DNA of 64,000 nt from a virus, in the UHGV virus genome UHGV-0064883. One strand, 5' to 3'. The notes beneath the pieces are model-generated. The model was not told the DNA's origin. It searched no databases and saw only the letters and a program-made list of their open reading frames with translations. Positions 10,234 through 63,742 of this stretch are shown here, one piece after another. The translations under genes were made by a program, and so were the position numbers. How positions within the stretch are numbered: position 1 is the first letter of the stretch; each line of letters begins with the position of its first letter.

Positions 10234-10261
10234 CCTTCCCTGCCTTCCGGGGGCCTCCGGC

Positions 10262-10630: not shown

Positions 10631-10639
10631 TGTATCTTG

Positions 10640-10676
10640 ATGCCTTCATCATAGCTATCTTTTTAAAAATTGCAAG
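10640..10676 (-). promoter_or_regulatory. Sigma70-like promoter (TTGCAA-17nt-TATGAT) for the minus-strand gene
   Basis: Reverse complement reads tcTTGCAAtttttaaaaagatagcTATGATgaagg, ending 12 nt before the ATG. Confidence 0.35.
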
Positions 10677-10702
10677 ATAAAAATACACATTCCGCGAGAA
10701 AA

Positions 10703-10721
10703 ATTTGCAATCATTGCAAAT
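10703..10721. repeat. 19-bp palindrome ATTTGCAATCATTGCAAAT (copy 2)
   Basis: Followed by TTCAGAAAT, then the GT25 gene start. Confidence 0.9.
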
Positions 10722-10773
10722 TTCAGAAATCAATGTTGCCCATGAAAATTCAGGCGGCTATAGTGTCAAAGAC

Positions 10774-11826
10774 ATGATAACCTTAAACCATCTCGGAATA
10801 TCCCACGCGGTCATCATTGCCCTGCCGGAACGTGCCGAACATGTTTCCCGGCTGAAAAACTCCATGATTGACGGAGGCATCGACCCGGAAAGCGGCGTTA
10901 CCATACTCCCCGCCTGGAACGGTCGTGAGCTGCACCCCCCGAAAAGCTGGAAGGGGACCCGTGGCGCATGGGGCTGCGTACAGTCCCACATCCGGGCCTT
11001 GCGGCTCGCAGTCAAAAACAATTGGGAATCAGTGCTCATTTTGGAGGACGACGCCATATTTTGCCGCAATGCCGCCGTCAGACTGCAAACGTTGTTTGCC
11101 GCTCTGCCGAAAGACTGGCGGTTGCTCTACCTCGGAGGCTACCACCAGAACTGGCCGAAAGAAGTCCACGCGGATTACATTCTGGCTTCCGGCATGACGG
11201 CCACCCATGCCTACATCGTCAAACGGGAATCCGTGCCCTGGCTTATCAAGCACATCGCCTATTATCCCGACTATGAACAACAGCAATGGGGTGTTGACCA
11301 GCAAATCCGGAACGCCGTCTATCGGGGCGACATCCTCCAATACGCCCCGCGCTGGAATATTGTGGGGCAACAGCGTCAGGAGTACAGCACCATTGCCCAT
11401 TCTAGAGCCGGAAACCGGGAACGCTGGTGGGAACATTCGCAAAACGACCAGTTCCGCCTGCTTCCGCTTGTACTTCTCCAAGAGCCGTTAACCGTGGAAG
11501 ACGTTGACGGGCTTGAGGAACTGGTGGACATCGCCCCGGAAAAAAGCGTTGAATCCCTCCTGGAAAAAACGGAAGACATGGCCGGCGCCATCATTGAAGC
11601 ACTTTCCTACAGCGCACGGGGGGCGTTCAGCCACCGGCGCGTTCCCGCCCTGTATTACAGCGACCGGAAAGCTGCGGACAGATGCGCCCGCCTGTGGTCT
11701 GCGGAATGCCTGTTTGCCGAAGCCGGTGATTCCGACCAAACCAGGGAACTACTCGTTACCACCCTGCGCCGCATTGTCGATTATGCGGAAAACCCGGATA
11801 TGAACCCGGACATGGGCGAAAACTAA
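10774..11826 (+). CDS. Glycosyltransferase family 25 (Lic2A/LpsA-like) protein 1
   Basis: N-terminal (h)INL-x-x-R motif (VIIALPERAEHVSRL). GAWGCVQSHIRAL and LILEDDAIF motifs typical of GT25. The C-terminal WWEHS...LLPLVLL region is shared with the second copy. Start is the first ATG after the palindrome. Confidence 0.7.
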   Translation: MITLNHLGISHAVIIALPERAEHVSRLKNSMIDGGIDPESGVTILPAWNGRELHPPKSWKGTRGAWGCVQSHIRALRLAVKNNWESVLILEDDAIFCRNAAVRLQTLFAALPKDWRLLYLGGYHQNWPKEVHADYILASGMTATHAYIVKRESVPWLIKHIAYYPDYEQQQWGVDQQIRNAVYRGDILQYAPRWNIVGQQRQEYSTIAHSRAGNRERWWEHSQNDQFRLLPLVLLQEPLTVEDVDGLEELVDIAPEKSVESLLEKTEDMAGAIIEALSYSARGAFSHRRVPALYYSDRKAADRCARLWSAECLFAEAGDSDQTRELLVTTLRRIVDYAENPDMNPDMGEN

Positions 11827-11848: not shown

Positions 11849-12889
11849 ATGGATTATTTATTTCCGCATTATTTTGACCGTATTGTCGTCATCAATCTCG
11901 CCAAAAACCCCGAACGGTTCACCCGCATTGCCGACGAGCTGAAACATAAGTGCCTGGCCGGGCCGGATGATATTGTCAGGCATGAAGCCGTGCATGGGGA
12001 TTCCATGCCGCACCCGGCATGGTACAGGGCCGGAAACGGAGCATGGGGGTGCTTATCCAGCCACATTGAGGTGCTGGAAGATGCCTGGAATACCGGAAGC
12101 GAGCATACTCTGATTATTGAGGATGACACCGTATTCGCCGACGACCTTTTGACGCGGTTCCCGGAAATCATGAAAGAAGTTCCGAAGGAATACGGGCAGC
12201 TGTATCTTGGAGGCCAGCACCAGCAGGCCCCGGAAGCCCTGTCTGACACGTTGTGGCGCGGCACGTCCATCAACCGGACGCACTGCTACGCCGTCACCCG
12301 GAAATTCATTCCGGAAATCCTCGCCCACATCATGGACTGGGACACCCACATCAAGGCTGCGGGAAACCCGCTCCATATCGACCACACGCTGGAAATCGGA
12401 CACCAGCGCCGGTACTGGCCCGTGTTCTGCCCCCGGTTCTGGTTCGCCGGGCAGGGAGAAAACCAATCCGACATCAACGGCAGGCCGCAGCGGGAAATGT
12501 GGTGGGAATATTCCGTGAAACAACAACACCTGGAACTTCCCCTGCTTGTGTTGCGGACCGTTGACATGCCAAAACATATTAAAGACCTTGTGTTTGCCGG
12601 TTGGCCGACAGATTTGGACGCCCGTGGCGTGAACAAAAAAATTGAGGATGCCAAAAAAGACAAGGCCACCCTGCTTCGGGAAATAAGCTGGCTGGCTTAT
12701 GTGGGATTCCAACACCACAGCCTTCCGGCGGTGTATCTTCCGGAGCCGGAACCTACCAGCGAGCTGCAACGCCTGTGGTCCGGGGAAGTCGTTGACACGG
12801 CCCGCATGGATGACGCGGACATTCACCGGATGCACCGCATTCTGGAATTCGCCAGCAACCCGGAGATGCTAAAGTATAGGTTCCGATAG
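11849..12889 (+). CDS. Glycosyltransferase family 25 protein 2 (paralog)
   Basis: FDRIVVINLAKNPERF, GAWGCLSSHIEVLE and LIIEDDTVF motifs. C-terminal WWEYS...LPLLVL and ASNPEM motifs are shared with copy 1. Confidence 0.8.
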   Translation: MDYLFPHYFDRIVVINLAKNPERFTRIADELKHKCLAGPDDIVRHEAVHGDSMPHPAWYRAGNGAWGCLSSHIEVLEDAWNTGSEHTLIIEDDTVFADDLLTRFPEIMKEVPKEYGQLYLGGQHQQAPEALSDTLWRGTSINRTHCYAVTRKFIPEILAHIMDWDTHIKAAGNPLHIDHTLEIGHQRRYWPVFCPRFWFAGQGENQSDINGRPQREMWWEYSVKQQHLELPLLVLRTVDMPKHIKDLVFAGWPTDLDARGVNKKIEDAKKDKATLLREISWLAYVGFQHHSLPAVYLPEPEPTSELQRLWSGEVVDTARMDDADIHRMHRILEFASNPEMLKYRFR

Positions 12890-45918: not shown

Positions 45919-46258
45919 ACAGAAGACTGTTTATGAATATGGAAAAGCAGTCAAGGACCTCAGCAACATAATTAAAGAGATTCGCAATAAGGCCCGAATG
46001 CAGTTTGCAACGGAGTATCACGAGCTACCTCTACAATATCGTGCAGAGTTATTGAATTATTTTGGTTTTGAGACCTTTGTTGATGAAGTTCGATATAGGC
46101 GGGCCGAGTGCCGGGCGTTTATGGTCCCAAATGACTGTAGCAAGTGTATTCACTTTCCCAATAAATATCCCGGTTGGAAATGTGTCGGCTGTAAATGGGA
46201 TATATCTTACAAAAATGTTAAATCACGTTGGGAACCAAGAAAAGAGAACGAAAACTAA
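45901..46258 (+). CDS. Cys-cluster protein, paralog family B (with 56076-56636)
   Basis: MKLNPEQKTVYEYGKAV... parallels MKLTLEQKAFYEYGRAV at 56076. CSKCIHF...CVGC cluster. Confidence 0.4.
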
Positions 46259-46647
46259 TGAAAAAGACTATTGAACAAACAGCCTTTTATTGGTATGGGT
46301 ACTATAAAGCCTGCCTGAAATTAAAAATTAAAGAGGCCCGTAATTATGCTGAGTGTGAATACGAGAGACAATACAGTGAGCTGACACCAGCGGGGCGGGA
46401 AGAGTGTTTGGTATATGCCGGGGTTAGGTCTTACATCATTCTGACCAGAAGGGCACGCCGCTCATGCCGGTTATTTGGCATACCCAGCGCTGAACGGTCA
46501 TGCGTTAATTGCGCGTATGTCGATTTATTGCATTACCAGCCGCCATGCAATAACTGCCTTCGTTCCCCGTATGCCGTGCACGGAGAAACGACCGACGACG
46601 CCTGGAAGCCGATTGGAAAATGGCAAAACCCATACAAGCGGGCTTGA
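46258..46647 (+). CDS. Small Cys-rich hypothetical protein
   Basis: Internal ATG of ORF 46228. C-x-x-C...C-x-x-C motifs. Confidence 0.35.
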   Translation: MKKTIEQTAFYWYGYYKACLKLKIKEARNYAECEYERQYSELTPAGREECLVYAGVRSYIILTRRARRSCRLFGIPSAERSCVNCAYVDLLHYQPPCNNCLRSPYAVHGETTDDAWKPIGKWQNPYKRA

Positions 46648-47558: not shown

Positions 47559-49049
47559 ATGCACCAGGACACCGACGCAGAAAATGCCGCCAGTCAGAGC
47601 CGGTTAAATGAAACCGCCATGCTGATTCCCCGGCTGCTGTTAAAAGCCCGTACTGATTTTATTGCATTTTTGCTTGCCATTTCCGACGACGAATCCGGCT
47701 ACATCCTGTCCCGAATGCACCTGTTTATTGCGGGCAAGCTCAATGATACCGTCACCCGGAAGGACGTGCCGAGGAATTACACCATTTCCGTACCGCCCCA
47801 GCACGGGAAGTCCTCCCTGATTGTGCGGTATGTCGCGTGGCTGGTTGGGTCTTATCCCAGATTGTGCGTTGCCCTGACTGGCTTCTCCGCCGAATTGATG
47901 GGTCAGATGCTCCGGCAGGTCACATCCATTATGGATTTGCCTGTGTACCAGGTGATTTTTCCCGGTGTGAAAGTGAAGCCGAAGGATGACCGCTGGGACT
48001 ATAAACGGTTCACCAATGACGCTATTATTTATGCTAAGCCGGCAGGCTCCAAGCTGACCGGGAGGCGGGTGGACATTCTCATTATTGACGACCCCCATGC
48101 CGGGCGTGCCGAAGCCGAATCCCCCACTATCCGCAACCGCGTTGTGCAGTGGGCGGTTGCAGACTGCTTTTCCCGCCTTTCGCCCCATTGGCGGGTGTTT
48201 GTCATTGGGACCCGGTGGCATCCGGAAGACCTCATTGGACATCTCACCGGGCGGGAATACAATAAACGGCTTGAAATGCTTGGCAATACCGCCATGAAAT
48301 TTGAAGTCATCAAGATTCCCGCTATCTGCGAAGACCCGGCTACCGACCCCCTGGGGCGGAAGGCTGGGGAAGTGGCGTTTCCGGAAGAGCGTGACTTGGA
48401 GTTTTTAACGTCCATCCGTGGGGCCATGACCACGACGGAGTGGAAATCCCAGTACCAGCAGGAGCCGGTCACGTCCAAGGGCGGGCAGGTCAACGCGGAT
48501 GATTTCAACCTCATTTCCCCGGAGGAAGTGCCGTGGAGCGAACTGACGGCCATAGGCTCCGGCTGGGACTTGGCCGCAACCGACAAAACGGCATCCGACT
48601 GGACCGTGGGCGCGTGCGGGGCGCGGACAAAGGATGGCCGCCTGTATATTTTCGACCAGTTCCGCAAACAAATGCAGATTCCAAAACTGCTTCCGGCCAT
48701 TGAAGCCCGCGCCCTGGCATGGAAGGATATGTACGGGGCCAATCAGCTGGGCGTGGAAGGCGTGGGGGGCATGGTGGGATATTACCAGCAGCTTCGGCAA
48801 ATGCTTTTAGGAAAAATCAGCGTGCGGCTCAAAAATCCCCCGGTCAAAGGAGGGGGGAAACTGGTGCGGGCACAAAACTGGCTGGCCTTGGTGGAGGCAA
48901 AAAAAGTGTATCTGGTACAGGCCCCCTGGGTGCGGTCGTTTTTGGAAGAGGTGGAAGTATTCCCGGACGGGGACCACGATGACCAGGTGGACAGCGTATC
49001 CATTCTTTACGAGCTTCTGTTTCTCTCCGCCCGCATTCTGGTCGGATAA
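47559..49049 (+). CDS. terL: Terminase large subunit
   Basis: ATPase Walker A-like VPPQHGKSSL and Walker B DILIIDDPH. C-terminal RNase-H-fold nuclease region with DGDHDDQVDSVS. Confidence 0.85.
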   Translation: MHQDTDAENAASQSRLNETAMLIPRLLLKARTDFIAFLLAISDDESGYILSRMHLFIAGKLNDTVTRKDVPRNYTISVPPQHGKSSLIVRYVAWLVGSYPRLCVALTGFSAELMGQMLRQVTSIMDLPVYQVIFPGVKVKPKDDRWDYKRFTNDAIIYAKPAGSKLTGRRVDILIIDDPHAGRAEAESPTIRNRVVQWAVADCFSRLSPHWRVFVIGTRWHPEDLIGHLTGREYNKRLEMLGNTAMKFEVIKIPAICEDPATDPLGRKAGEVAFPEERDLEFLTSIRGAMTTTEWKSQYQQEPVTSKGGQVNADDFNLISPEEVPWSELTAIGSGWDLAATDKTASDWTVGACGARTKDGRLYIFDQFRKQMQIPKLLPAIEARALAWKDMYGANQLGVEGVGGMVGYYQQLRQMLLGKISVRLKNPPVKGGGKLVRAQNWLALVEAKKVYLVQAPWVRSFLEEVEVFPDGDHDDQVDSVSILYELLFLSARILVG

Positions 49050-49061
49050 GCCGCCAATAAA

Positions 49062-49080
49062 ATTTGCAATCATTGCAAAT
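49062..49080. repeat. 19-bp palindrome ATTTGCAATCATTGCAAAT (copy 14)
   Basis: 13 nt after the terL stop. Followed by TTCAGAGAC, then a 320-nt leader containing a C8 tract (49348-49355). Confidence 0.9.
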
Positions 49081-49403
49081 TTCAGAGACTACGGCCAAAA
49101 AGCTTTTTTCCTTTACTTTTCACTTTTCCGGCACAAACAATACCAGCCCATGAAGTTCCACAGCCTTTCCATGCTTTTTACGCTCCGTGGCCCTCCCCGC
49201 CCTGTTTTTCAGCTTGTCCCCCAGGCAATCCGCGAACGGTCGGATGCGCGAGGACGGGAACGCATCATTTCCCGCGTCTGAAATAAATGGCTTTCACCAT
49301 CAGGCGCAATCTCCGCATTTCCTTTTTCTGTTGCCTTCGCCGGATTGCCCCCCCCTCGTCAGGAAGGGAACGGCAAACCGTAACCATAAACAAAAAGATA
49401 GAA

Positions 49404-50279
49404 ATGACAGTTCAAACCTTACCGGCAACCGTGCCGGACAGCGTTTCTGCGACCTTGCGCGTCGTCATGAAGCCCGTGGAATCAATTCACCCCTACGAAA
49501 ATAACCCCCGCTACAACGACAGCGCGGTTCCCTACGTCAAAAACTCAATTCAGGAGTTCGGCTTCAAGGTTCCGATTATCGTCGATGAAGCCGGAAGCAT
49601 TGTCTGCGGTCACACGAGGTACAAGGCGGCCCTGGAATTGGGCATGAGCCATGTGCCTTGCATTGTCGCTTCGGATTTGACCCCAAAGCAGATTCAGGCG
49701 TTCCGCCTTGTTGATAACAAGGTGTCGGAGTTTTCAAGCTGGGATTTTTCCAAACTTGAAATTGAGATAGGGGAGCTGGATGCCGAATTTAATCTTGATG
49801 ACTTCGGTTTTTTCTCCGATTCAGAGCGGGCGGGAAGCTCGCCGGCGGATGTGGGCAGTGCCGCAGAAATGCAGGATGATACTGCGAGGGATGACCGGAA
49901 TATCTATACAGGACGCATCATTACTCCGGTTTATGAAATTACCGGGGATTGTCCAAAAACCGAAGAGCTGGTTGACCGCACCAGAGCGGAATCCCTGCTG
50001 GAAGAGATTGACCGGACCCCAGGGCTTCCGGATGCCGTGCGTGACTTTTTGCGTATTGCCGCCATGCGGCACTATGTCCTGCATTTCGACAGGATAGCCG
50101 AGTTTTACGCCCATGCGGTCCCTCCTGTGCAGCGGCTCATGGAAAACTCCTGTCTGGTCATTATTGATTATGACCGCGCCATTGAGCTTGGATATGTGCA
50201 AATGGCACGTGCCCTGGCCGATGAATACGACCGAGAATACCCGGAAGGGGAGGAACAGGAAGGAGGCGGCGAATCATGA
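49404..50279 (+). CDS. ParB-like N-terminal (ParB/Srx) nuclease-domain protein 1
   Basis: IHPYENNPRYND...GFKVPIIVDEAGSIVCGHTRYKAALELG matches the ParB N-terminal domain with its GxxR arginine motif. The C-terminal domain is shared with copy 2. Start is an internal ATG of ORF 49287. Confidence 0.65.
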   Translation: MTVQTLPATVPDSVSATLRVVMKPVESIHPYENNPRYNDSAVPYVKNSIQEFGFKVPIIVDEAGSIVCGHTRYKAALELGMSHVPCIVASDLTPKQIQAFRLVDNKVSEFSSWDFSKLEIEIGELDAEFNLDDFGFFSDSERAGSSPADVGSAAEMQDDTARDDRNIYTGRIITPVYEITGDCPKTEELVDRTRAESLLEEIDRTPGLPDAVRDFLRIAAMRHYVLHFDRIAEFYAHAVPPVQRLMENSCLVIIDYDRAIELGYVQMARALADEYDREYPEGEEQEGGGES

Positions 50280-51211
50280 TGCGGCACTCTGATTTCTGCG
50301 TCTTGATTATTTCCCATGGACGGGCCGGGAGGGTGAAAACCCTGAACGCGCTTGAGCGTTTTGGCTACAGCGGCCCCTGGTACATCGTCATCGACAATGA
50401 GGATTCACAGGCCGGAGACTACCTTAATTGCTACGGGAGTGACCACGTTGTTGTTTTTGATAAACCCCTTGAGGCATCCAGGCTGGACATAGCGGATAAT
50501 TTTACAGGCCGTCTTGGGCGCAAAAGCACCGTGTACGTACGCAATGCGAGCTTTGACATTGCCCGCCGCCTGGGATTCCGGTATTTCATGGTGCTGGACG
50601 ACGATTACGACTATTTCCGTTTCGTATTGGACAGCAACCGCCGCTATACTTGCCGGCGCTGTGTCTGTCTGGACACAATCCTTGACATCTGCCTCGATTA
50701 CTTCACCCGTACACCGGCCCTTGCCACCATAGCGTGGCTTCAAGGCGGCGACCTGCTGGGAGGGGCCAACTCCAACAGCCTTTTCAGCCTCCGGCGAAAA
50801 GCCATGAACAGTTTTATCTGTGACACGGAACGCCCCTTTTCCTTCATGGGCCGGTTTAATGAAGACGTGAACACCTACATCACTCACGGAAACCGGGGAG
50901 TGGTCATGTTCTCAATTACGGAATTGGCGCTTAACCAGGCCAGCACCCAGCAGACGGCGGGAGGGATGACGGAAGCCTACCAGGAAAACGGAACCTACGT
51001 GAAATCGTTTTACAGCGTCATGCATATGCCGTCTGCGGTGAAAATCCGGACAATGGGCGAACGTTACCGAAGAATCCACCATGCTATTACATGGAATAAT
51101 TGTGTACCGAAAATCATCCGTCCGGAGTACCGGAAACCGGATATTGTGCGGGGTGACAGGAGAAAACGCGGCAGGAGCCGAAAAAAACTGCTTGCAATTC
51201 CGGCCCCTTAA
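50276..51211 (+). CDS. GT-A-like putative nucleotide-sugar transferase 1 (DxD-like motif)
   Basis: Hydrophobic beta1 CVLIISHGR, WYIVIDNED, and FMVLDDDYDY at about aa 105, consistent with a GT-A fold DxD. ATGA overlap with the ParB-like gene. Paralog at 54342. Confidence 0.35.
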   Translation: MMRHSDFCVLIISHGRAGRVKTLNALERFGYSGPWYIVIDNEDSQAGDYLNCYGSDHVVVFDKPLEASRLDIADNFTGRLGRKSTVYVRNASFDIARRLGFRYFMVLDDDYDYFRFVLDSNRRYTCRRCVCLDTILDICLDYFTRTPALATIAWLQGGDLLGGANSNSLFSLRRKAMNSFICDTERPFSFMGRFNEDVNTYITHGNRGVVMFSITELALNQASTQQTAGGMTEAYQENGTYVKSFYSVMHMPSAVKIRTMGERYRRIHHAITWNNCVPKIIRPEYRKPDIVRGDRRKRGRSRKKLLAIPAP

Positions 51212-51396
51212 TAGGATATTGCTAGTGTTACCCGCCCAGCGGGAACCCGACAACAACCAATAATAGCTGCTATCCAGAAAAGACAAGCCCCCGGCCCCTT
51301 CCTGCATCCCACCCGCGTATCGGATTGCCTGTCATGCGTACCGCAGGAAACCGGGGGCTTGTTTTCTTTCCCCCCTCCGGGTATAACGGCGGCGTT

Positions 51397-51723
51397 ATGA
51401 TTGCCTTGAATACTCCTATTGCCACCATACCGGGGCGCCGGTACTGCATCACCACAGTATCTTCCGTCCAGGTGATTGCCGTCATTGACGACGAAGAGTT
51501 TGATTTGCTGGGGGGCCTTCCCATCACTGGCCAGGCGCAATTTGTCGCCCCCACGGACCACATTGAGGTGCGTGACGCGTCAGCCCCGGAAGAAGGGGCG
51601 GCGGCCAGCGCGTCGGAATCATCCCCGGAAACGTCAAGCGTCATGTTTGACGGCTCCGCAACGCCCCTTGCCGGAGACGCGGCTTCCGTGTCCGGGAGCA
51701 TCGTCGAAATTGTACGCAGTTGA
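51397..51723 (+). CDS. Hypothetical protein
   Basis: Internal ATG of ORF 51325. Ser/Ala-rich C-terminus. Confidence 0.3.
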   Translation: MIALNTPIATIPGRRYCITTVSSVQVIAVIDDEEFDLLGGLPITGQAQFVAPTDHIEVRDASAPEEGAAASASESSPETSSVMFDGSATPLAGDAASVSGSIVEIVRS

Positions 51724-52041
51724 CAAGCTATCCCGGATTTGGCAGGATGCTCCCCGCATGCGCGACGCGCTTCAAAGGCGTGGATTGAGGCGATAAGGGC
51801 ATGCTTCCGCAGGGTGTATGCGTGGGGGGCAAAAGAAGGCTTCCCTTGGAGGGTATAGTGAAGACTCTCCCCTTCTCCTGCGGCAAACGGGAACAACAAA
51901 AAAGGGGATGCCCTTCCTTTTTTCCAGGATGGCCGCAGTTTTCCGCTGCGGGGAAAGAAGGAAGGGTATTTTTCCGCCTCCAATTTTTCTTTTTACTCTT
52001 TGTGCCTGATGCAGATTCCTCCCCCCCCCGATAAATGCCGA

Positions 52042-52800
52042 ATGCACTGTATCATTCCCCTGAAAGCGCGCTCTATGCGTTGCCCTGGAAAAAATTTTAG
52101 AACCTGCAACCCGTATCTTTCCGGGGGCCTGATTCCGCTGTGGGAAGTGTCGGCCCGGTACGTCAGGGGCGAGGGATGGGAACCAGTTATTTCCTGTGAC
52201 AGTCCGGAATTGTTGCATGATATTTCCCGGCGCGGATATGAACGCACTGTTTTATGGCATCCCGACCCGGAATCCCCATATATGCAGGGCCACATCAGTC
52301 AGGTTGCCGTGCAGATTAACGCCGGGGATTCTGACCTGCTTTGCGTAGTCCAGGCAACTTCCCCGGTAAGACGGCCCGGACTGCTTCGGGACATGCACGC
52401 CTTGATGTCATCCGATACCAATATTCAGGTGGCTTTTACGGGAGAACACCTGAAAATTTGCGGTATCTTGAATGGCTCTCTTTTTGGGCAGGATGAAAGC
52501 CAGTCCGCCCGGCACTGGTACGACCACTATGACGGGGCGCTTATCCTGCTGCGCTATGATACTCTGAAACGCTGCCCCCCCCGAACGGTCGTGCATCCAG
52601 GGCTGCTGTCCGGCCCCGGTGATAAAGTGGCCGTGTTTTACCAGACCCTGCCCTGGTCATTTCAAATCGACACGGAAGACGATTATTCCTTTTATCTGCA
52701 AATGCGGCGGCCTGATGCGGAAAAACAGTCAGCCTTCTGCAAACGGTCGAACCCGTATCGGGTATATACAAAAAGCGCAACCCCTGATGAATTGGCATGA
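52042..52800 (+). CDS. Acylneuraminate / CMP-ulosonic-acid cytidylyltransferase-like protein (CTP_transf_3 family)
   Basis: N-terminal IIPLKARSMRCPGKNF matches the IIPARxGSKGxxxKN P-loop of CMP-NeuAc/CMP-Kdo synthetases, followed by GGLIPLWEV. VVQATSPVRRPGLL matches the hallmark QxTSPLR motif. A C9 tract lies 13 nt upstream of the ATG and another inside the CDS at 52575-52583. Confidence 0.65.
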   Translation: MHCIIPLKARSMRCPGKNFRTCNPYLSGGLIPLWEVSARYVRGEGWEPVISCDSPELLHDISRRGYERTVLWHPDPESPYMQGHISQVAVQINAGDSDLLCVVQATSPVRRPGLLRDMHALMSSDTNIQVAFTGEHLKICGILNGSLFGQDESQSARHWYDHYDGALILLRYDTLKRCPPRTVVHPGLLSGPGDKVAVFYQTLPWSFQIDTEDDYSFYLQMRRPDAEKQSAFCKRSNPYRVYTKSATPDELA

Positions 52801-53396
52801 TTGTATTGGTAGGAAATGCCCAGGAATCTGAACACCGATTAAAAGACTACTCCGCTTTTATCGACTCCGACAAGCCCCGGTTGGTGGTGAGGGTGTCGAA
52901 AATGTGCAACTACGATTCTGGAAAGACCGGAACGCGCTGTGATTGGGTGTTCCTCAACCCTAATCCCATGTACTGGACTTTTCCGCCAGAGCGCCGCCAT
53001 TGGAATGTGCTTGCCGGGGCCAGTAAAATCATCATCACCTATCCCCCTCCCGGAAGCCTGAAAGAAGGGCCTTGCATTCCTCCGTACTGGCAAAAGGAAG
53101 AATACCGGTTTCTGCACCAGCACCCTTTTCTGGAATACTTGCCGGAGGCGGTGTTCCGGGAAGGGGTGGACCGGCGGCTGACGACGTTCGGATTTGCCCT
53201 GTGGGTGCTTTCGCGGCGTTTCCCGCATGAGCAGATAGCCCTGCATGGGTGCATTACCTCGCAGGATGCCTGGCGCCGTGTCCGCTGGTGTCCCTGGCAC
53301 AATGGCGTTGGCGAGTTTGCCCTGTATGCCAATCTGTTCCGGAACGGTCGGATTTTCAGGCTGGACGGTGGCGGATTATGCTTTGATGAGGATTGA
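52797..53396 (+). CDS. Hypothetical protein translationally coupled to the cytidylyltransferase
   Basis: ATGA overlap. 199 aa with no recognised motif. Confidence 0.35.
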   Translation: MIVLVGNAQESEHRLKDYSAFIDSDKPRLVVRVSKMCNYDSGKTGTRCDWVFLNPNPMYWTFPPERRHWNVLAGASKIIITYPPPGSLKEGPCIPPYWQKEEYRFLHQHPFLEYLPEAVFREGVDRRLTTFGFALWVLSRRFPHEQIALHGCITSQDAWRRVRWCPWHNGVGEFALYANLFRNGRIFRLDGGGLCFDED

Positions 53397-53419
53397 AACC
53401 ATGCTAAGAATCCATGAGA

Positions 53420-53438
53420 ATTTGCAATCATTGCAAAT
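53420..53438. repeat. 19-bp palindrome ATTTGCAATCATTGCAAAT (copy 15)
   Basis: Ends 20 nt before the ATG of the second ParB-like gene. Confidence 0.9.
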
Positions 53439-53458
53439 TTCAAAAATCGTTTTCGCAC

Positions 53459-54295
53459 ATGGAAATTGTAGATATTGCCGTAAAAGACCTGATTCCTTAT
53501 GATAAAAATCCGCGCCGTAATGATGAAGCGGCCGTCAAGGTGGCGGAATCCATTAAACAGTTCGGTTTTAAGATTCCCCTTGTGGTTGACCGCAATAATG
53601 TTGTTGTCTGCGGGCACACCCGTTTAAAGGCCGCAAAAAAGTTAAAGCTTAAAACTGTTCCCTGTATTCTCGCTGACGATTTGTCGGAAGACCAAATCAA
53701 GGCGTTCCGTCTGGTAGATAACCGGACGGCGGAAATCGCCGAATGGGATTTTGCCCTTTTAGAAGAGGAACTGGCGGACGTGCAGCTTGACATGACCGCC
53801 TTTGATTTCGACGACCTTTTGGCAGAAGAGGAAGCCGGAAGCGAAAACAGTCAGACCCCAGTAGGAGCCGAAAGGGAGGAAGAAAGCGCATCACCGGAGT
53901 CGCAAACTGCAGAAAATATGTACACGCAGCGCATCGTCACTCCGGTTTATGAGGTTACCGGAGATTGCCCGGAAGTGTCTTCCCTGGTGGACAAGGGCAA
54001 AGCGGAAGCGCTGCTGGAATCCATTAACCAAGCCCAGGAACTCCCGGATGATGTGCGGGAGTTTTTACGCATCGCCGCCGCCAGGCATTATGTTTTGCAT
54101 TTTGACCGCATCGCTGAATACTACGCCCACGCCCCGGCCCATATTCAGCGGCTCATGGAGGATTCCTGTCTGGTTATCATTGATTTTAACAAAGCCATTG
54201 AGCAGGGATATATCCGCATGTCCGAACGATTGGCCGCGCTGGCCAGCATAGACGAACAGGGCGCAACGGAAGAAGAAGACGAAGCGGACGAATAA
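53459..54295 (+). CDS. ParB-like nuclease-domain protein 2 (diverged paralog of 49404-50279)
   Basis: LIPYDKNPRRND...GFKIPLVVDRNNVVVCGHTRLKAAKKL. The C-terminal YTQRIVTPVYEVTGDCPE...LRIAAARHYVLHFDRIAEYYAHA is about 70% identical to copy 1. Confidence 0.65.
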   Translation: MEIVDIAVKDLIPYDKNPRRNDEAAVKVAESIKQFGFKIPLVVDRNNVVVCGHTRLKAAKKLKLKTVPCILADDLSEDQIKAFRLVDNRTAEIAEWDFALLEEELADVQLDMTAFDFDDLLAEEEAGSENSQTPVGAEREEESASPESQTAENMYTQRIVTPVYEVTGDCPEVSSLVDKGKAEALLESINQAQELPDDVREFLRIAAARHYVLHFDRIAEYYAHAPAHIQRLMEDSCLVIIDFNKAIEQGYIRMSERLAALASIDEQGATEEEDEADE

Positions 54296-54341
54296 CACAG
54301 GCCGCTTTGATTTTTTTACCGCAATAACTTTTCTTTTTTTT

Positions 54342-55205
54342 ATGCTGACGCATTCCGATTTTTGCACGTTTATTTTGTCTCATGGACGGCCAAACAATAT
54401 CAGAACCCTGCACCCGTTGCTAAACACCGGAAATTACAGCGGCCCCTGGTACATCATTATCGACAATGAGGACCCCACGGCGGAAACCTACTATCAGCTT
54501 TACGGCTCCGACCGGGTAATCATGTTTGACAAGGAGGCCGAAGCCCGTCGCCTGGATATTGCAGATAATTTCGTCCACATGAGCCGCAAGACCATTACCT
54601 ATGCCCGCAATGCCTGTTATGACATTGCCAAAAACTTGGGCTACACGTATTTTTGGCAGCTGGATGACGATTATTGCCGGTTTCGGTACGTGACCGACCA
54701 GGCCGGAAAATACGTGTACCACAGCATCCGCCACCTGGACGAAGCGTTGAACGCGACCCTTGATTATTATAAAAGCGTTCCTTCCCTGACCCTGTTGTCC
54801 TGGATGCAGGGCGGGGATTTACTGGGCGGCGCCAACAGCCAGTCTCTGACCGTGGTGAAGCGAAAAGCCATGAACAGCTTTATTTGCTCTACCGAGCGCC
54901 CCATAAAGTTCCGGGGCCGGATGAATGAGGACGTAAACACCTATGTTTCCGAGGGCAACCGGGGAAAGCTCATTATGATGGCGAATTGTGCCGGCATTTT
55001 ACAGACCCCCACCCAGATTAACGACGGAGGAATCACGGAACTTTACAGGTCTTGCGGCACTTACACCAAGGCAATGTACACTGTGATGCACATGCCCTCA
55101 GTAACTACAGTGGGCATGATGCACAGCACTTTTCCCCGGATTCACCACACAATAAATTGGAACAACTGCGTTCCGAAAATTATCCGGCAGGAGCTTAAAA
55201 AATAG
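54342..55205 (+). CDS. GT-A-like putative nucleotide-sugar transferase 2 (paralog of 50276-51211)
   Basis: MLTHSDFCTFILSHGRP...WYIIIDNED...YFWQLDDDYCRF; about 55-60% identical to copy 1. Confidence 0.35.
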   Translation: MLTHSDFCTFILSHGRPNNIRTLHPLLNTGNYSGPWYIIIDNEDPTAETYYQLYGSDRVIMFDKEAEARRLDIADNFVHMSRKTITYARNACYDIAKNLGYTYFWQLDDDYCRFRYVTDQAGKYVYHSIRHLDEALNATLDYYKSVPSLTLLSWMQGGDLLGGANSQSLTVVKRKAMNSFICSTERPIKFRGRMNEDVNTYVSEGNRGKLIMMANCAGILQTPTQINDGGITELYRSCGTYTKAMYTVMHMPSVTTVGMMHSTFPRIHHTINWNNCVPKIIRQELKK

Positions 55206-55293
55206 AGCTTTTCCGGGAAGAAAGACCCTTCATCTATCGGCCCTGTCTGGATATTAGCCCGGCAGGGCCGCAGTATATCTTTCTCTTTTTCTC

Positions 55294-55431
55294 AATTTGC
55301 AATCATTGCAAATTTTTTTTCTCAAAAAAGATTCTTTTTCTCTTGCAATTTATAAAAAATAATGCTAAATTACATTCATCAAAGGGAGGGAATAACTCTC
55401 CTACAGCAAAAAGCCTGAAAGTTAAAACATA
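55294..55431 (+). promoter_or_regulatory. Palindrome (copy 16) plus conserved promoter/leader cassette
   Basis: ATTTGCAATCATTGCAAAT, then TTGCAA-17nt-TAAATT, then CATTCATCAAAGGGAGGGAATAACTCTCCT (stem GGAG/CTCC). Confidence 0.55.
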
Positions 55432-55683
55432 ATGAAGACTGCAACCATCATTTACCGCTGGACCGCCAAAACCTCTTCCAGATGTCTTGGCCGCTATTAT
55501 ACCGCCAGCACCCTGCTTGAAGCCATTAAGGCGGGAAAAGAATTTGTGACCCGTGAGTTCCACGGGACGGGTTCCGTACTTATTGAAGCTTCCCTGGACG
55601 GAGGAAAAACCTGGCACGTTAATCGCGAATACAGACGCGACCGTTATACCCAGATGCGCTGGACAGCGGAAGTTTTCTATTGA
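55432..55683 (+). CDS. Small protein, paralog family A (with 44430-44690)
   Basis: YRWTA...TLLEAIKAGKEFVTREF...ASLDGGKTWHV. Confidence 0.45.
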   Translation: MKTATIIYRWTAKTSSRCLGRYYTASTLLEAIKAGKEFVTREFHGTGSVLIEASLDGGKTWHVNREYRRDRYTQMRWTAEVFY

Positions 55684-55769
55684 TACCCCCTTCCCCGGCT
55701 GGAAATTATATTTGGCCGGGGAATAAACCTGATTTCATTATTATTTACTTAAATCATAAAGAAAAAACC

Positions 55770-56060
55770 ATGAACAGAAACGTAACTAAAACCGTAACCC
55801 ATCATATTCTTCCCTGTCTGGGCCTTCTGATTGTTGAAGCCGTCTCCTGCGTGCTTGCCGTCTATGGCATTGTTATCCTGCTTGGATATGACGCGCCTTC
55901 CCTTTATTGTGTGTTATCCGGGATTCTGAAAGCTATCGCGCTGGTAATATTGCTTCTCATCAGCGTGGGAAGCCTGGTGGGTATTGTGGGTGTGGCAGTG
56001 CATCTTTTTTCCTCAAATTGCCGTTGCCAGGAAGAAGACAGTGATGAAATTAACCGATAA
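55770..56060 (+). CDS. Small membrane protein
   Basis: Two or three TM helices (ILPCLGLLIVEAVSCVLAVYGIVILLG; AIALVILLLISVGSLVGIVGVAV). Confidence 0.4.
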   Translation: MNRNVTKTVTHHILPCLGLLIVEAVSCVLAVYGIVILLGYDAPSLYCVLSGILKAIALVILLLISVGSLVGIVGVAVHLFSSNCRCQEEDSDEINR

Positions 56061-56075
56061 TCCTCCAGACAAAAA

Positions 56076-56636
56076 ATGAAATTGACGCTTGAACAAAAAG
56101 CTTTTTATGAATATGGCCGGGCTGTGGAATCCCTCAAGAGGACAATTTACGAAACCCGCGAAACTGCTATTCAGGAATTCAAAGACCCATACCGCTTTCT
56201 TTCGACATATGACCGGAAACAGCTGATTGACGCAATGGGTCTTGCCTCGGAGATTTCTGCTGTCCGGCAGAAGCGTGCCGCGTGCAGGGCGTGGAAGTTG
56301 CTAGCACAAAGACATTGCCAGAATTGTTGTTATTACGGAAAATCCGGTAATGATGCGCCCTGCGTCGATTGTACCTTGGGAGACATTGGTGATGATACTC
56401 GTCTTAGCTGTAATTGGGCGCCAAGGCGCAAGTTCAGAAAAGGTGATATTGTACGTCGGATTGATACCGGAAAAATGCGGGCGTATGATGACCATATTCC
56501 ATTCGGAAAACTTGTAACCATACTGAAAGACGAGACTGATGACGACTGCGGAAATATCTTAGTAGGAACTAGAGAAACTACGCAGGCCGTAAAATTCTAT
56601 GAAGTGAAACTTTTTTTAAAAAAAGCTAACGATTGA
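56076..56636 (+). CDS. Cys-cluster protein, paralog family B (with 45901-46258)
   Basis: MKLTLEQKAFYEYGRAV... and a CQNCCYYG...CVDC cluster. Confidence 0.4.
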   Translation: MKLTLEQKAFYEYGRAVESLKRTIYETRETAIQEFKDPYRFLSTYDRKQLIDAMGLASEISAVRQKRAACRAWKLLAQRHCQNCCYYGKSGNDAPCVDCTLGDIGDDTRLSCNWAPRRKFRKGDIVRRIDTGKMRAYDDHIPFGKLVTILKDETDDDCGNILVGTRETTQAVKFYEVKLFLKKAND

Positions 56637-56837
56637 TTGAACATGAAAAAAGAAAAACTTAAATGTTTTATATGCGGGCAAGCAGTAGAATTAGTTGGTG
56701 ACTCTGCTCAAATAGAACGTATGGGTTATGACAGGCACAATGACCGTCCGTTTTTTAATGTCTGCCGTGAATGTCAACAACTTATCGACAAATGCCTTAT
56801 AGAATTTGAGCAGAAATTTCCAGATGAAGACGCTTAA
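56637..56837 (+). CDS. Small zinc-ribbon protein
   Basis: CFICGQ...CREC, 66 aa. Confidence 0.35.
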   Translation: MNMKKEKLKCFICGQAVELVGDSAQIERMGYDRHNDRPFFNVCRECQQLIDKCLIEFEQKFPDEDA

Positions 56838-57168
56838 ATGTCCACTGTGCGGGAGTTTGTTGAAACTGGATTTCAGTTGCAAATATATCTGCCCCAATTG
56901 CGAACTAGCTGCAAAAAGCGGAATCTCAAAAGAAGAGGCACTAAAACGTGCGGAAAAACTTATTTCTCAATTCCCACCTATCATGCGGGTATTTCCAGGA
57001 GATAAGTTAAAGTTTTTTAACCACCAAATGCGCCAGAAAATTGCATACATAGAAAAAGTTAATTTGAAGTCTGGCTGGATAAAAACAAATAAAGGATTTG
57101 CCCGCCCGGATGATGTGATTCTGTGGCCTTGGGAACTTGAACAAAAAGAAGAAGGAGATAAACAATGA
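56824..57168 (+). CDS. Zinc-ribbon protein, paralog family C (copy 2)
   Basis: MKTLKCPLCG...CPNC, then ISQFPPIMRVFPGDK, then WPWELEQ. Confidence 0.45.
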   Translation: MKTLKCPLCGSLLKLDFSCKYICPNCELAAKSGISKEEALKRAEKLISQFPPIMRVFPGDKLKFFNHQMRQKIAYIEKVNLKSGWIKTNKGFARPDDVILWPWELEQKEEGDKQ

Positions 57169-57506
57169 AAACACCTAGATGTCCGCTGTGCGGAGAAGAA
57201 TTAACGCCGTCTGTACAAAAATACGGATTTGAATACGTCTGCTGGAAGTGCAAATGGCAAACCGCTTCACTTTGCTCCACCAGGCAAGAAGCGGAAAAAA
57301 CAGCTCAAAAGCTAATCTCCAAGTTCCCTCCCATCATGAGGGTTCATCCTGGCGATAAGCTTCATGACAAGTGGTGCGGGCTGGTCACGGTTGAATCCGT
57401 CGATAAGGAAGACTGTGTAATCACAGTACGAACTGTCAAGGGGAATGTATCCCGTACTTATTGCGAGGATGTTAATGAATGGCCCTGGGAAATCGAACAA
57501 GAATAA
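57165..57506 (+). CDS. Zinc-ribbon protein, paralog family C (copy 3)
   Basis: MKTPRCPLCG...CWKC, then ISKFPPIMRVHPGDK, then WPWEIEQ. ATGA overlap with copy 2. Confidence 0.45.
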   Translation: MKTPRCPLCGEELTPSVQKYGFEYVCWKCKWQTASLCSTRQEAEKTAQKLISKFPPIMRVHPGDKLHDKWCGLVTVESVDKEDCVITVRTVKGNVSRTYCEDVNEWPWEIEQE

Positions 57507-57509
57507 ATT

Positions 57510-57803
57510 ATGGACATAAATGAATTGTTAGAAGATAAGGATAACGGGCTTGTTCCGTTAGACGGGCGCAGTTATGATATAGCTGCATACGCTGGACAAC
57601 TACGGCAGGCCCGGAATCTTTTACTGGGTTCCCTGCCCGCTGAAACAGTGGCTTGCATGTCGGATAATGAAGTACTCCAAACTTTGGTTGACTGCAAGAA
57701 TCTCGTTCCAGTCGCCGCCTCCTATAAAGACGGCATAGACGATGAAGTCATCTTTCTGGTTCCGGCGGAAATATTGAAGAGGTGCAGGGTTCTGCAACGC
57801 TGA
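57510..57803 (+). CDS. Hypothetical protein
   Basis: 97-aa ORF. Confidence 0.35.
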   Translation: MDINELLEDKDNGLVPLDGRSYDIAAYAGQLRQARNLLLGSLPAETVACMSDNEVLQTLVDCKNLVPVAASYKDGIDDEVIFLVPAEILKRCRVLQR

Positions 57804-57862
57804 ATGATTTTCCGGCAAACCACGCTATGAACGGAAAAACATGAGAAAAAAGGAATCATGCA

Positions 57863-58270
57863 ATGACCGATATTCTTCTATCTATCAAAAAGCCGTTCTC
57901 CGACCTCATTTTGTCGGAGGAAAAGAAATGGGAGCTGCGGAAAACCGAACCCCGCGCCATGAAAGACGGCCCCATAATGCTCTGGCTTTATGAATCCGGG
58001 AAGGATGGGGCGCATGCCATTATTGGAAAATGCCAGACAAAGTATGCGCTGCCCATGCTCCAACAACTGAACAACTGGCAACGCCTGTGGATGATGCGGG
58101 AAGCCTGCATCACGAAAGAATACCTGTCTTCCTACATCCCCTGCCGCGCCTGGAACCTCACCAGCCCCGTGCGGCTTCCCTACGCCGTACCGCTCTCTGA
58201 AATCGGCCTGGTCCGCCCTCCGCAGTCCTGGCAATACCTCACCGAAGAACAAGCAGCACTTTTACGATGA
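57863..58270 (+). CDS. ASCH-domain (PUA-like) protein
   Basis: N-terminal ILLSIKKPFSDLILSEEKKWELRK matches the ASCH start pattern (ILLSIKP-x-Y-x-x-I-x-x-G-x-K-x-x-E-x-R). Confidence 0.45.
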   Translation: MTDILLSIKKPFSDLILSEEKKWELRKTEPRAMKDGPIMLWLYESGKDGAHAIIGKCQTKYALPMLQQLNNWQRLWMMREACITKEYLSSYIPCRAWNLTSPVRLPYAVPLSEIGLVRPPQSWQYLTEEQAALLR

Positions 58271-61977: not shown

Positions 61978-62547
61978 ATGCCTATGAAAGACAACATCCT
62001 AGTGTTATGCCACAGCAACATGCACCGCAGCCCGTTCGTTGCGGAATTCATCCGGAACTCCCCCTACGGAGACAGCTATGAAGTCCGTGATGCGGGACTG
62101 CACGTCGACAAGGAGCAGCGCGTGCCCAAATCCCTTCAGCGGGCCTTCCAGACCGTCTCCCAGGGGAGCCTGAAAAGCCACAAGTCGCGCCCGGTGGGAA
62201 TCAGCGATATTCTGTGGGCAGACAAAATAATCATCATGGAGCCGGAGAACAAAAGCGACCTCCTGCAAATGCTCGGAAGCCTGCACCTCTCCGACAAGCC
62301 CCGGTACGACCACATTGTCTCCAAGATAATCTCCCTGGCCCAAATCGGCGGGAAGACAGCCGTGGACGACCCTCACCACTACTCCCCCGGAACGATCGAA
62401 TACGGAAAAGTAGTATTAAACCTCGCCTGCCTGACAGCCGTCCTTCTGGAAACGTGGGAAGCCCAGCGTTCATTGAGCGGAGGGGAAAAATCCAAAGACC
62501 GGAAACCGGACGACGCGGAATCCGCAGCAGGCCCATTCGGAGCTTGA
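61978..62547 (+). CDS. Low-molecular-weight protein-tyrosine phosphatase (LMW-PTP/ArsC-fold)
   Basis: ILVLCHSNMHRSPFVAEFI carries the C-x5-R-S P-loop signature. A downstream DP (VDDPHHYS) matches the position of the catalytic Asp. Confidence 0.65.
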   Translation: MPMKDNILVLCHSNMHRSPFVAEFIRNSPYGDSYEVRDAGLHVDKEQRVPKSLQRAFQTVSQGSLKSHKSRPVGISDILWADKIIIMEPENKSDLLQMLGSLHLSDKPRYDHIVSKIISLAQIGGKTAVDDPHHYSPGTIEYGKVVLNLACLTAVLLETWEAQRSLSGGEKSKDRKPDDAESAAGPFGA

Positions 62548-62986: not shown

Positions 62987-63742
62987 ATGCACGCCTATTT
63001 GCTCTACACACCGGGGGAAATGCTGGAAGGCGAAGACGAACTTACCGCACTGGGCTACCATGTCCATCCTTTTTTGGGCAATAATGATACGTCCGGCCTC
63101 CGGAACAAAGTCAAACACATTCCCAGCCTGGGGCATTCCGCGTCCTATTTATCAGACGGACTGGGCTACAACTGGTGCGGCCACGTCCATGCGCTCCGCG
63201 CCAACTTTGCAACCATGCTGGAAACTTACATGGATGCGGACGACCTTACTATATATGGAGAGTCGGACTGCGTGCCCGCGCCTTATCCCCCTGTGTCCGC
63301 CGACGATATTTCCTGTGTTTGTCAAGAAGCGGTTTCCCGGCATCCTGAAATCGGCATCATCCGTCTGTACCGCCGCGCCACACTATTTAACGAGCCTACC
63401 TGGTGGAACCATGCGCCCCTTGAGATTGTCCCGCTGAAAAAGGCGGCCAGAATCTCCAACATTCCTTTTACGAAATATTACTGTCAAACCCACGCCCTGA
63501 TTATCCGCAGGCACGTCCGCCAAACGGTCATCGACGCCATGCGGGATTATTATTTGCCCATTGACGTGCTCCTATCTTATTTGTCCCAGATTGGGACCGT
63601 GCCCGTGTGGCACACCAGCATCAACCTAATGCTTCAACGCCCCCACAGCACGGGAAAGAGGCTGGCGGACTGGCAGCGCAAACATTCTGTTCCGGCAGCG
63701 GACTATTGGCGCGACAGGCCCGGACTGACTGGAAAAAGGTAG
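62987..63742 (+). CDS. Hypothetical protein
   Basis: 251 aa. A C9 tract lies 35 nt upstream of the ATG. Confidence 0.4.
   Translation: MHAYLLYTPGEMLEGEDELTALGYHVHPFLGNNDTSGLRNKVKHIPSLGHSASYLSDGLGYNWCGHVHALRANFATMLETYMDADDLTIYGESDCVPAPYPPVSADDISCVCQEAVSRHPEIGIIRLYRRATLFNEPTWWNHAPLEIVPLKKAARISNIPFTKYYCQTHALIIRRHVRQTVIDAMRDYYLPIDVLLSYLSQIGTVPVWHTSINLMLQRPHSTGKRLADWQRKHSVPAADYWRDRPGLTGKR

Follow-up and report, generated by a model that had tools for sequence, protein, structure and literature searches.

Two old, diverged copies of a ParB-like and TAGT glycosyltransferase gene pair in a probable DNA-sugar-coating island of a gut phage

The 64,000-nucleotide (nt) stretch of the virus genome UHGV-0064883 analysed here (the window) comes from a gut phage with a genome of ~90 kb, and carries two copies of a gene pair in which a ParB-like protein is followed by a glycosyltransferase (GT) of the TAGT family. 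By sequence comparison, the two pairs are true paralogues that arose long ago from a mobile ParB-like+TAGT cassette. They lie directly downstream of the gene for the large terminase subunit (TerL) and flank a pair of genes of the type used for sialic acid activation and transfer, and since the cassette copies bracket such a sugar activation and transfer pair, the region is probably a DNA-sugar-coating island. Our overall reading, which we regard as about evenly balanced between right and wrong, is that two ParB-partnered TAGT modules in a glycosylation island would act in parallel on phage DNA, and that the middle gene pair would add an acidic sugar.

The two ParB-like proteins (ParB1 and ParB2) are 51% identical over 259 amino acids (aa; BLASTP, E 5e-94), and the two glycosyltransferases (GT1 and GT2) 54% identical over 288 aa (E 9e-116). 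In neighbour-joining trees of 28–35 dereplicated homologues, the GTs are sisters in 100/100 bootstraps and the ParB-like proteins in 200/200, whilst the closest homologue to either GT in IMG/VR is only ~50–52% identical. Substitution at synonymous sites between the copies is saturated (dS ~2.0–2.3, against ~0.45 at nonsynonymous sites, dN), so the split must be old. A previous reading of this DNA made from sequence alone (the sequence-only reading) had recognised two diverged paralogous pairs with an identical gene order, which these data bear out. It had also called the pairs tandem, but GT1 and ParB2 are 2.2 kb apart, with three other genes between them (51325–51723, 52045–52800 and 52797–53396) and no head-to-tail adjacency. 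Its identity estimate of roughly 55–60% for the GTs was close to the 54.5% found in the by-domain comparison, as was its estimate of about 70% for the ParB C-terminal domain (66%), whereas the figure of about 55% for the N-terminal domain was slightly high (47%); the acidic linker between these domains is 26% identical. Divergence between GT1 and GT2 peaks in two segments after the catalytic-type DxD motif of GT-A enzymes (residues ~106–150 and 196–240, 30–43% identity), a pattern that would fit divergence in specificity.

Both GTs are clear members of the TAGT family, a name that reportedly originates with Iyer et al. in 2013. They score 98.8 bits (GT1) and 109.9 bits (GT2) against the Pfam TAGT model (PF20691, cutoff 27.5), and match phrog_842, a family named after the T2/T6 beta-glucosyl-HMC-alpha-glucosyltransferase, at 2.9e-63 and 4.8e-58 respectively. 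The GT-A DxD motif (LDDDY) is intact in both, and its residues D108, D109 and D110 do not vary among 18 homologues. Each GT retains 64 of the 65 family positions conserved at 90% or more, including the DDD motif. A search of PDB sequences with the GT profile found no related solved structure. TAGT members are described as DNA glycosyltransferases (PMC13216743, PMC13390438), and the window enzymes share with those of T2 and T6 their sequence family, the DxD motif and a phage origin. In contrast to the T2/T6 enzymes, they are not associated with a TET/JBP dioxygenase, an alpha- or beta-GT or a hydroxymethylase, and are always partnered by a ParB-like protein.

The ParB-like partner consists of an N-domain of the ParB/Srx CTPase fold, a helical segment, an acidic disordered linker and an all-helical C-domain. 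Pfam ParB_N (PF02195) is matched at 31.0 bits by ParB1 and 31.5 bits by ParB2 (cutoff 26.3), and phrog_620 over the full length of both proteins (2.4e-55 and 3.8e-58). A profile search against the PDB gave 5.8e-9. The AlphaFold2 (AF2) model of ParB2, built with 48 homologues, is confident for residues 1–127 and ~165–250 and disordered for 127–156. Foldseek matched only the N-domain of this model, to ParB-CDP/CTP, MxParB, Noc and KorB structures (for the ParB-CDP structure 6sdk, E 1.8e-6, 35% identity and a root-mean-square deviation (rmsd) of 1.8 over 92 columns), and returned no DNA-binding domain; the conserved C-domain has no Pfam family and no PDB match by Foldseek. All 48 homologues share the motifs NPR, GHTR and RxxDN without variation, and ParB1 and ParB2 each retain 45 of the 50 family positions conserved at 90% or more, with four of the five losses common to both. 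These proteins are not canonical ParB proteins of a ParABS partition system. Their TIGR00180 scores (32.6 and 35.3 bits) fall below the cutoff of 58.45, the strongest structural matches (rmsd ~2 Å) align only ~90–115 residues of the N-domain, and no ParA-type match was found among the scanned open reading frames (ORFs; some small ORFs lay outside the scan), each ParB being adjoined instead by a TAGT GT.

The N-domains are best matched by models of DNA methyltransferases that have an N-terminal ParB module (phrog_498, 7e-37 and 3e-41), and the N-terminal domain of the PADLOC MTase_II model matches at 1.1e-23. This was the sole match in the PADLOC scan, which gave no defence-system membership. 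With the ParB-N fused methyltransferases (phrog_498; PADLOC MTase_II; PMC12704722) the ParB-like proteins thus share an N-domain subtype (1e-23 to 1e-41) and a phage or prophage DNA modification setting, although here the ParB module is not fused to the enzyme but encoded apart from it, together with a C-domain of its own, and is paired with a glycosyltransferase instead of a methyltransferase. A similar arrangement has been described for phage ParB176, which activates the thymine dioxygenase 5mYOX176 on double-stranded DNA (O'Toole et al., PNAS 2026, PMC13229309). In both cases a ParB homologue composed of an N-domain, a flexible linker and a C-domain, with no DNA-binding domain, adjoins a known or putative DNA-modifying enzyme, and the nearest solved folds are chromosomal ParB CTPases; cognate pairing is suggested here by strict adjacency. 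The partner differs, being a GT-A glycosyltransferase and not a 2-oxoglutarate/iron (2OG/Fe) dioxygenase, and no 5mYOX was found. Many relatives of the window proteins consist of the C-domain only, and the likeness is one of described architecture.

In hundreds of phages and prophages, the ParB-like gene is a near-obligate neighbour of the GT. IMG/VR contains 532 relatives of GT2, and in 79 of 81 IMG/VR loci the gene immediately upstream of the GT encodes a ParB-like protein or only its C-domain; ParB-GT adjacency is also seen in 72 of 80 loci drawn from one genome per bacterial species, which span Firmicutes, Bacteroidota, Proteobacteria, Verrucomicrobiota and others. In around a quarter of the lineages the upstream gene encodes only the C-domain (~130 aa), and it is therefore the C-domain, not the ParB N-domain, that is the constant partner of the GT. 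The cassette is normally single-copy. Many of the loci are lambdoid prophages, where the pair lies between the lysis genes and terS, and in E. coli it corresponds to the Rac-type ynaK and the 'hypothetical protein' gene downstream of it, found in 1566 of 5426 complete genomes (29%). The Rac cassette of E. coli K-12 has the same composition, in which the gene for a ParB/Srx N-domain protein precedes a TAGT-like gene, at ~37–40% identity for the ParB and ~47–50% for the GT, and is single-copy; the Rac-type ynaK is annotated as truncated in many strains, and a search of the accessible literature for functional work on it gave none. At the nucleotide level, a search of 50,697 phage records with the island region returned only short matches of 66–73% in the ParB or GT genes, so that no annotated close relative of the island exists among them. 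Solitary TAGTs, the group to which the window GTs belong, are found in 288 of 753 GT-encoding phages (PMC13216743), and the published surveys leave unexplained these, GTs without a 5mYOX or thymidylate-synthase-type (ThyS) neighbour, and most GT-A matches.

In the mechanism we propose, the ParB-like protein would be the DNA-engaging or activating partner of the adjoining GT, by analogy with the phage ParBs that activate thymine dioxygenases and the ParB-N modules fused to DNA methyltransferases, and the GT would glycosylate phage DNA. Both modules would work in parallel, differing in sugar, linkage or sequence context so as to give alternative or mixed glycoforms, and the middle gene pair would add a CMP-activated acidic sugar of the sialic, Kdo or nonulosonic type. 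The best argument for DNA as the target is provided by the family assignments together with an exchange seen in one relative (L119; related contigs carry numbers prefixed with L). In the slot after TerL this phage has, instead of ParB1-GT1, a 179-aa ParB_N protein with a C-terminal zinc ribbon, together with a C5 cytosine DNA methylase (170 bits) and a further S-adenosylmethionine (SAM) methyltransferase (L119:2093-4370). The slot therefore exchanges ParB-partnered DNA-modifying cassettes.

The usual acceptors of O-linked sugars on DNA are 5-hydroxymethylcytosine (5hmC) and 5-hydroxymethyluracil (5hmU), and to our knowledge the known DNA glycosyltransferases require a 5-hydroxymethyl (or 5-hydroxy) pyrimidine. 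Several observations weigh against a DNA target on this account and others. Neither a TET/JBP dioxygenase nor a thymidylate-synthase-type hydroxymethylase was found in the scanned ORFs of the window (Pfam on 39 ORFs, PHROGs on 20), and precomputed Pfam annotation revealed none in ~24 kb of flanking genome of relatives or in the lambdoid prophage loci, a negative result that does not extend to a ~5.5 kb gap in the genome or to several ORFs without family assignment; the unassigned ORFs were also scanned crudely for an HxD motif, which gave no precursor enzyme. The same Pfam and PHROG scans detected no primary alpha- or beta-GT or other acceptor-supplying enzyme near the TAGTs. With no TET/JBP or hydroxymethylase detected, 5hmC or 5hmU acceptors would have no visible source. 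Nucleotide triphosphate (NTP)-dependent DNA clamping cannot be essential to the family, because about a quarter of its lineages lack the ParB N-domain, and in relatives of the window phage the ParB genes are often frameshifted while the adjoining GT is intact. The authors of the GT survey themselves considered GTs without a nearby 5mYOX or ThyS to be less obviously directed at DNA. Finally, genes for a GT11, two GT25 enzymes, a sulfotransferase and the PAPS pathway are found among the virion genes and could indicate a protein or polysaccharide target. The two GT25 genes are adjacent (10705–11826 and 11849–12889), past the tail and BACON-domain genes of the window, and the GT11 gene (fucosyltransferase family) of relatives is flanked by a 746-aa portal-sized gene and the gene for the prohead protease (L110:1755-2471). 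Past the position of the window end, relatives encode Sulfotransfer_2-like, PAPS_reduct (CysD-like), GTP_EFTU (CysN-like) and APS_kinase proteins (L108:13301-17155, L109:5625-9479). This last cluster amounts to a complete sulfate-activation pathway plus a sulfotransferase, with a Cpn10 (GroES-like) gene after it, and the set of glycan enzymes in the phage is unusually large.

These observations could also be accommodated by a target other than DNA. The cassettes would then be part of a wider phage glycan programme, whose substrates might be virion proteins (of the capsid or tail, or the terminase or portal), glycans of the host envelope or small nucleotides, with the ParB-like protein serving only as a regulatory or scaffolding subunit. 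The missing hydroxymethyl-pyrimidine-making enzyme, the GT11, GT25, Sulfotransfer_2 and CysD/CysN/CysC-like genes and the many lineages that pair the GT with the C-domain alone all speak for this, as does the absence of a neighbouring base-modification enzyme in ~65% of phage GT contigs. However, all the characterised TAGT members act on DNA (PMC13216743), the partner N-domain is of the subtype fused to DNA methyltransferases, the L119 slot holds a ParB_N and C5 DNA methylase cassette, and small lambdoid prophages with no other glycan genes carry the ParB-like+TAGT cassette just as commonly. We consider a non-DNA target unlikely on the whole, though a serious rival. A more far-reaching variant of DNA glycosylation, for which we see a slim but real chance, is that the ParB-like protein (through its C-domain) and the TAGT make up a widespread, self-sufficient DNA glycosylation system that needs no hydroxymethyl-pyrimidine precursor. 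If so, this would be a new acceptor chemistry, with canonical or otherwise modified bases as the acceptors; the two modules and the CMP-sugar synthetase/sialyltransferase-like pair, possibly with the sulfation genes, would decorate DNA with alternative acidic oligosaccharides, and the homopolymer tract of ParB2 described below would toggle one glycoform within the population.

The two genes at the centre of the island give the acidic sugar in our reading its basis. For the product of 52797–53396 an AF2 model was obtained with a predicted template-modelling score (pTM) of 0.80, and its top 11 PDB matches are all sialyltransferases, among them ST6GALNAC2-CMP, ST8SiaIII, CstII and Cst-I, at probabilities of 0.99–1.0 and query-normalised TM-scores (TMq) of 0.50–0.55 (one 0.44). 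The protein itself has no direct Pfam match; its homologue P0037 scores 22.9 bits against Glyco_transf_29, where the cutoff is 23. Distant homologues are fused C-terminally to cytidylyltransferase domains of the CTP_transf_3 family. The model thus predicts a sialyltransferase fold (GT29/GT42-like), linked to a gene resembling CMP-sugar synthetases. That neighbour, 52045–52800, is likely to be cytidylyltransferase-like, of the CMP-sugar synthetase type, on the basis of its similarity to the segment of protein P0030 called CTP_transf_3 by Pfam (BLASTP 6e-22, 29% over 218 aa) and to P0033 (5e-12), and of the visible motifs IIPxKxxSxRxPxKN and QATSP. It has no direct Pfam or NCBIfam match, and as a single sequence gave only a weak, marginal PDB match, to NeuA at the QATSP motif. 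All its database homologues lie inside the phage clade, and the assignment therefore rests on the fusion proteins. From these fusions and the sialyltransferase fold matches it follows that the cassettes bracket what looks like a split CMP-sugar synthetase and sialyltransferase pair. There is precedent for such sugars, as Kdo and heptose are placed on DNA by phage GTs, one of them accompanied by a cytidylyltransferase (bioRxiv 10.1101/2023.12.21.572611). The third gene between the modules (51325–51723) is present in all members of the clade, differs from relatives by 0–1 nonsynonymous against 7–8 synonymous changes, and has no Pfam, PHROG, NCBIfam or PADLOC match.

Comparison with close relatives gives a ratio of nonsynonymous to synonymous divergence (dN/dS) of 0.05–0.25 throughout the island, and of 0.16–0.17 for GT2, at a dS (0.33–0.37) above that of module 1. 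For module 2 as a whole dS is 0.18–0.37 versus 0.02–0.13 in its neighbours, which suggests a separate recombination history. Both modules persist in the window type and in L127–L129, two sublineages with ~82% nucleotide identity to one another. Among 18 related contigs that cover both module positions, the window included, all four genes are intact in eight (window, L003, L106, L114, L118 and L127–L129). Frameshifts affect ParB2 only in two (L002 and L113), ParB1 only in one (L116) and both ParBs in another (L120). GT2 is deleted and ParB2 truncated in two (L004, through a 4.6-kb deletion, and L126), and module 2 is cleanly absent from two more (L121 and L122), where homology to the window ends at 53389 and restarts at 55259, with breakpoints by the palindromes at 53421 and 55296 described below. 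Module 1 is deleted in one contig (L125), and in L119 it is replaced and module 2 is absent. The partial contigs L001, L112 and L117 likewise have module 2 absent, deleted or frameshifted. No GT frameshift occurs in any of these contigs. In L126, residues 1–178 of ParB1 are joined to the C-domain of ParB2, and residues 1–38 of GT2 to the remainder of GT1 (L126:349-2208), which reads as a gene-conversion tract of ~500 nt across the ParB-GT junction.

The frameshifts in ParB2 fall in a poly-C tract in the linker, at a site equivalent to ~53893–53902 of the window. Six contigs have C9 (L001:6054, L002:8333, L004:13574, L112:2135, L113:7086 and L117:7086), one has C7 (L120:7086) and two have C8, which is in frame (L106:12055 and L125:5939); in a further contig the tract is interrupted but in frame, and in the window and four other contigs it is replaced by the non-repetitive CCGGAGTCG or CCGGATTCG. 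A length of 7, 8 or 9 thus sets the C-domain of ParB2 in or out of frame. The tract looks like a contingency tract and a possible phase-variable switch that could turn ParB2 on and off in some relatives, although the length differences may also be homopolymer assembly errors.

The modules come and go as flexible accessory units, with the intergenic palindrome at their boundaries, and the idea of an old duplication with both copies retained needs qualifying: it is old, and both copies are intact here, but they are not stably kept. It might be supposed from this that the second module is redundant cargo, duplicated or recombined in, without a distinct role and on its way to being lost. The family indeed has single copies as a rule; in L002, L113, L120, L004, L126, L121, L122 and L119, as well as in the partial contigs, module 2 is missing, deleted or frameshifted; and its raised dS suggests recombinational exchange. 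Yet GT2 and ParB2 are within the dN/dS range given above and keep the family-invariant residues, the copies are still intact in two sublineages after a split as old as dS ~2 implies, module 1 has also been lost or disabled (L125, L119, L116 and L120), and double-TAGT arrangements recur independently elsewhere. Since both copies are under purifying selection, we consider plain redundancy very unlikely. For the same reason, the scenario in which single-copy relatives and relaxed selection would mark the duplication as simply redundant is an ill fit to these data.

Those independent doublets are of two kinds, C-domain-GT-C-domain-GT (L055:7072-9516, L148:2759-4843 and L194:2478-4849) and ParB-GT-GT (L155, L159, L161, L192 and L172), and the extra GT is often just 24–35% identical to the window GTs. 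They bear on a second alternative, that the modules act in series, with one GT placing the first sugar, the other extending it and the sialyltransferase-like enzyme capping the chain. The characterised TAGT of T-even phages puts a second glucose on a base that already carries one (PMC13216743, PMC13390438), phage DNA GTs with di-sugar products are known, and in several lineages two strongly diverged TAGTs sit behind one ParB (24–35% versus 45% identity to the query). The window copies are, in contrast, each other's closest relatives with the same conserved positions, and do not fall into distinct initiating and extending subfamilies; moreover, L121 and L122 (module 1 only) and L125 (module 2 only) keep the middle genes and an intact remaining cassette. 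An obligate two-step reaction, in which GT2 acts on the product of GT1, is unlikely because phages with either module alone exist, and we rate the serial scheme as a whole as distinctly improbable. The sub-functionalisation proposed by the sequence-only reading is partly supported, by purifying selection on both copies and by a divergence that would fit a difference in specificity, whilst its two-step option does not sit well with the single-module phages. The best reading is that the two modules are parallel and individually dispensable, with alternative specificities fitting better than an obligate two-step. The nearest analogy for two glycoforms would be the alpha- and beta-GT of phage T4, also two related DNA sugar transferases in one phage. 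These have a GT-B fold, act on 5hmC and have a proposed origin by duplication, their co-occurrence is rare among relatives, and with two products the phage is hedged against defences directed at a single glycoform (PMC13216743); the window GTs differ in their GT-A fold and ParB partners.

The palindrome that had been said to precede each pair is present at both places (49063 and 53421), but is not specific to the modules. The 17-bp element TTTGCAAT[C/G]ATTGCAAA occurs 19 times in the window versus 0.12 expected, in each case directly past the end of an ORF, and is a genome-wide intergenic element at the boundaries of gene blocks. Seven copies, including that at 55296 after GT2, are followed by a conserved promoter-like element of ~75 nt, which consists of TTGCAA, 17 nt, TGcTAAAtT and then a ribosome-binding site, AAAGGGAGGG, with a strong Shine-Dalgarno sequence; the remaining copies lie 10–35 nt ahead of a start codon. 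The palindrome is probably an operator or promoter element; a module-specific site is ruled out by its genome-wide occurrence at ORF ends, often with the promoter-like element, but it could still serve as a parS-like loading site. Palindrome sites coincide with breakpoints of insertions and deletions among the relatives, and the deletion of module 1 in L125 begins at window position 49089, right past the copy at 49063. The palindrome at 53421 also falls inside the 5′ extension of the ORF that opens at 53414, which makes 53459 the likelier start of ParB2, in agreement with gene calls in relatives (276–279 aa).

Table 1. Positions in the window of the island genes, the upstream terminase gene and the intergenic palindrome
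Feature	Position	Strand	Remarks
TerL (large terminase)	47559-49049		stop at 49049; island directly downstream
Palindrome copy TTTGCAATCATTGCAAA	49063..49079		just past TerL stop; upstream boundary of module 1
ParB-like 1	49404-50279	+	291 aa
GT 1	50276-51211	+	311 aa; start overlaps ParB1 stop (ATGA)
Small conserved ORF	51325-51723	+	132 aa, mechanical ORF
Cytidylyltransferase-like ORF	52045-52800	+	251 aa from ATG; mechanical ORF from 52000
Predicted sialyltransferase-fold ORF	52797-53396	+	199 aa; start overlaps preceding stop
Palindrome copy	53421..53437		22 nt upstream of ParB2 start; upstream boundary of module 2
ParB-like 2	53459-54295	+	278 aa; mechanical ORF from 53414
GT 2	54342-55205	+	287 aa
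Palindrome and promoter-like element	55296..55390	+	downstream boundary of module 2
Palindrome copies 1-10	2897, 6912, 10704, 13553, 15525, 18499, 24825, 26934, 32126, 35956
Palindrome copies 11-19	36809, 41359, 43095, 44289, 49063, 53421, 55296, 59428, 63752

The genes of the window are nearly all on the plus strand and include those for a tape measure protein, DnaB, PolA, a RecA-like protein, RuvC and TerL. Between the palindrome after TerL and the start of ParB1, the ~325 nt at 49080–49403 contain no convincing gene and have no Rfam match; some gene callers start ParB1 at an ATG at 49287 (330 aa), an extension that is not covered by homologues. Rfam and tRNA scans of the entire window likewise gave no matches. 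Downstream of GT2 lies a block of small ORFs (55432–58270), several of which encode CxxC pairs (for example 56637–56837, 56806–57168 and 57165–57506); this block is lost along with GT2 in L004. The start of one ORF (56068–56116) repeats that of another (46250–46298) at 76% over 49 nt. Further on there is a gene resembling low-molecular-weight phosphotyrosine phosphatases (61978–62547; LMWPc, 28 bits) and a 251-aa ORF (62987–63742) with no function assigned, of which relatives carry two paralogues (L108:8332-9087 and 10001-10756).

In conclusion, the two ParB-like and TAGT gene pairs of this gut phage are old paralogues of a cassette that recurs, with the same two partners side by side, from E. 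coli Rac-type prophages to gut Bacteroidota and Clostridia. The sugar modifications of phage DNA shape the outcomes of restriction, CRISPR and glycosylase defences, and have been a source of enzymes for epigenetic sequencing. A large share of the solitary TAGTs and GT-A matches that have been left unexplained are coupled in a fixed pair to a ParB-like protein, without a visible precursor enzyme. As a two-gene unit that can be cloned in E. coli, the pair bears on a possible general role of ParB homologues in activating DNA-modifying enzymes, and on whether glycosylation of DNA by a new route is possible. The phage clade described here supplies natural single, double and chimeric variants of the modules, possibly phase-variable, with which specificity may be studied.

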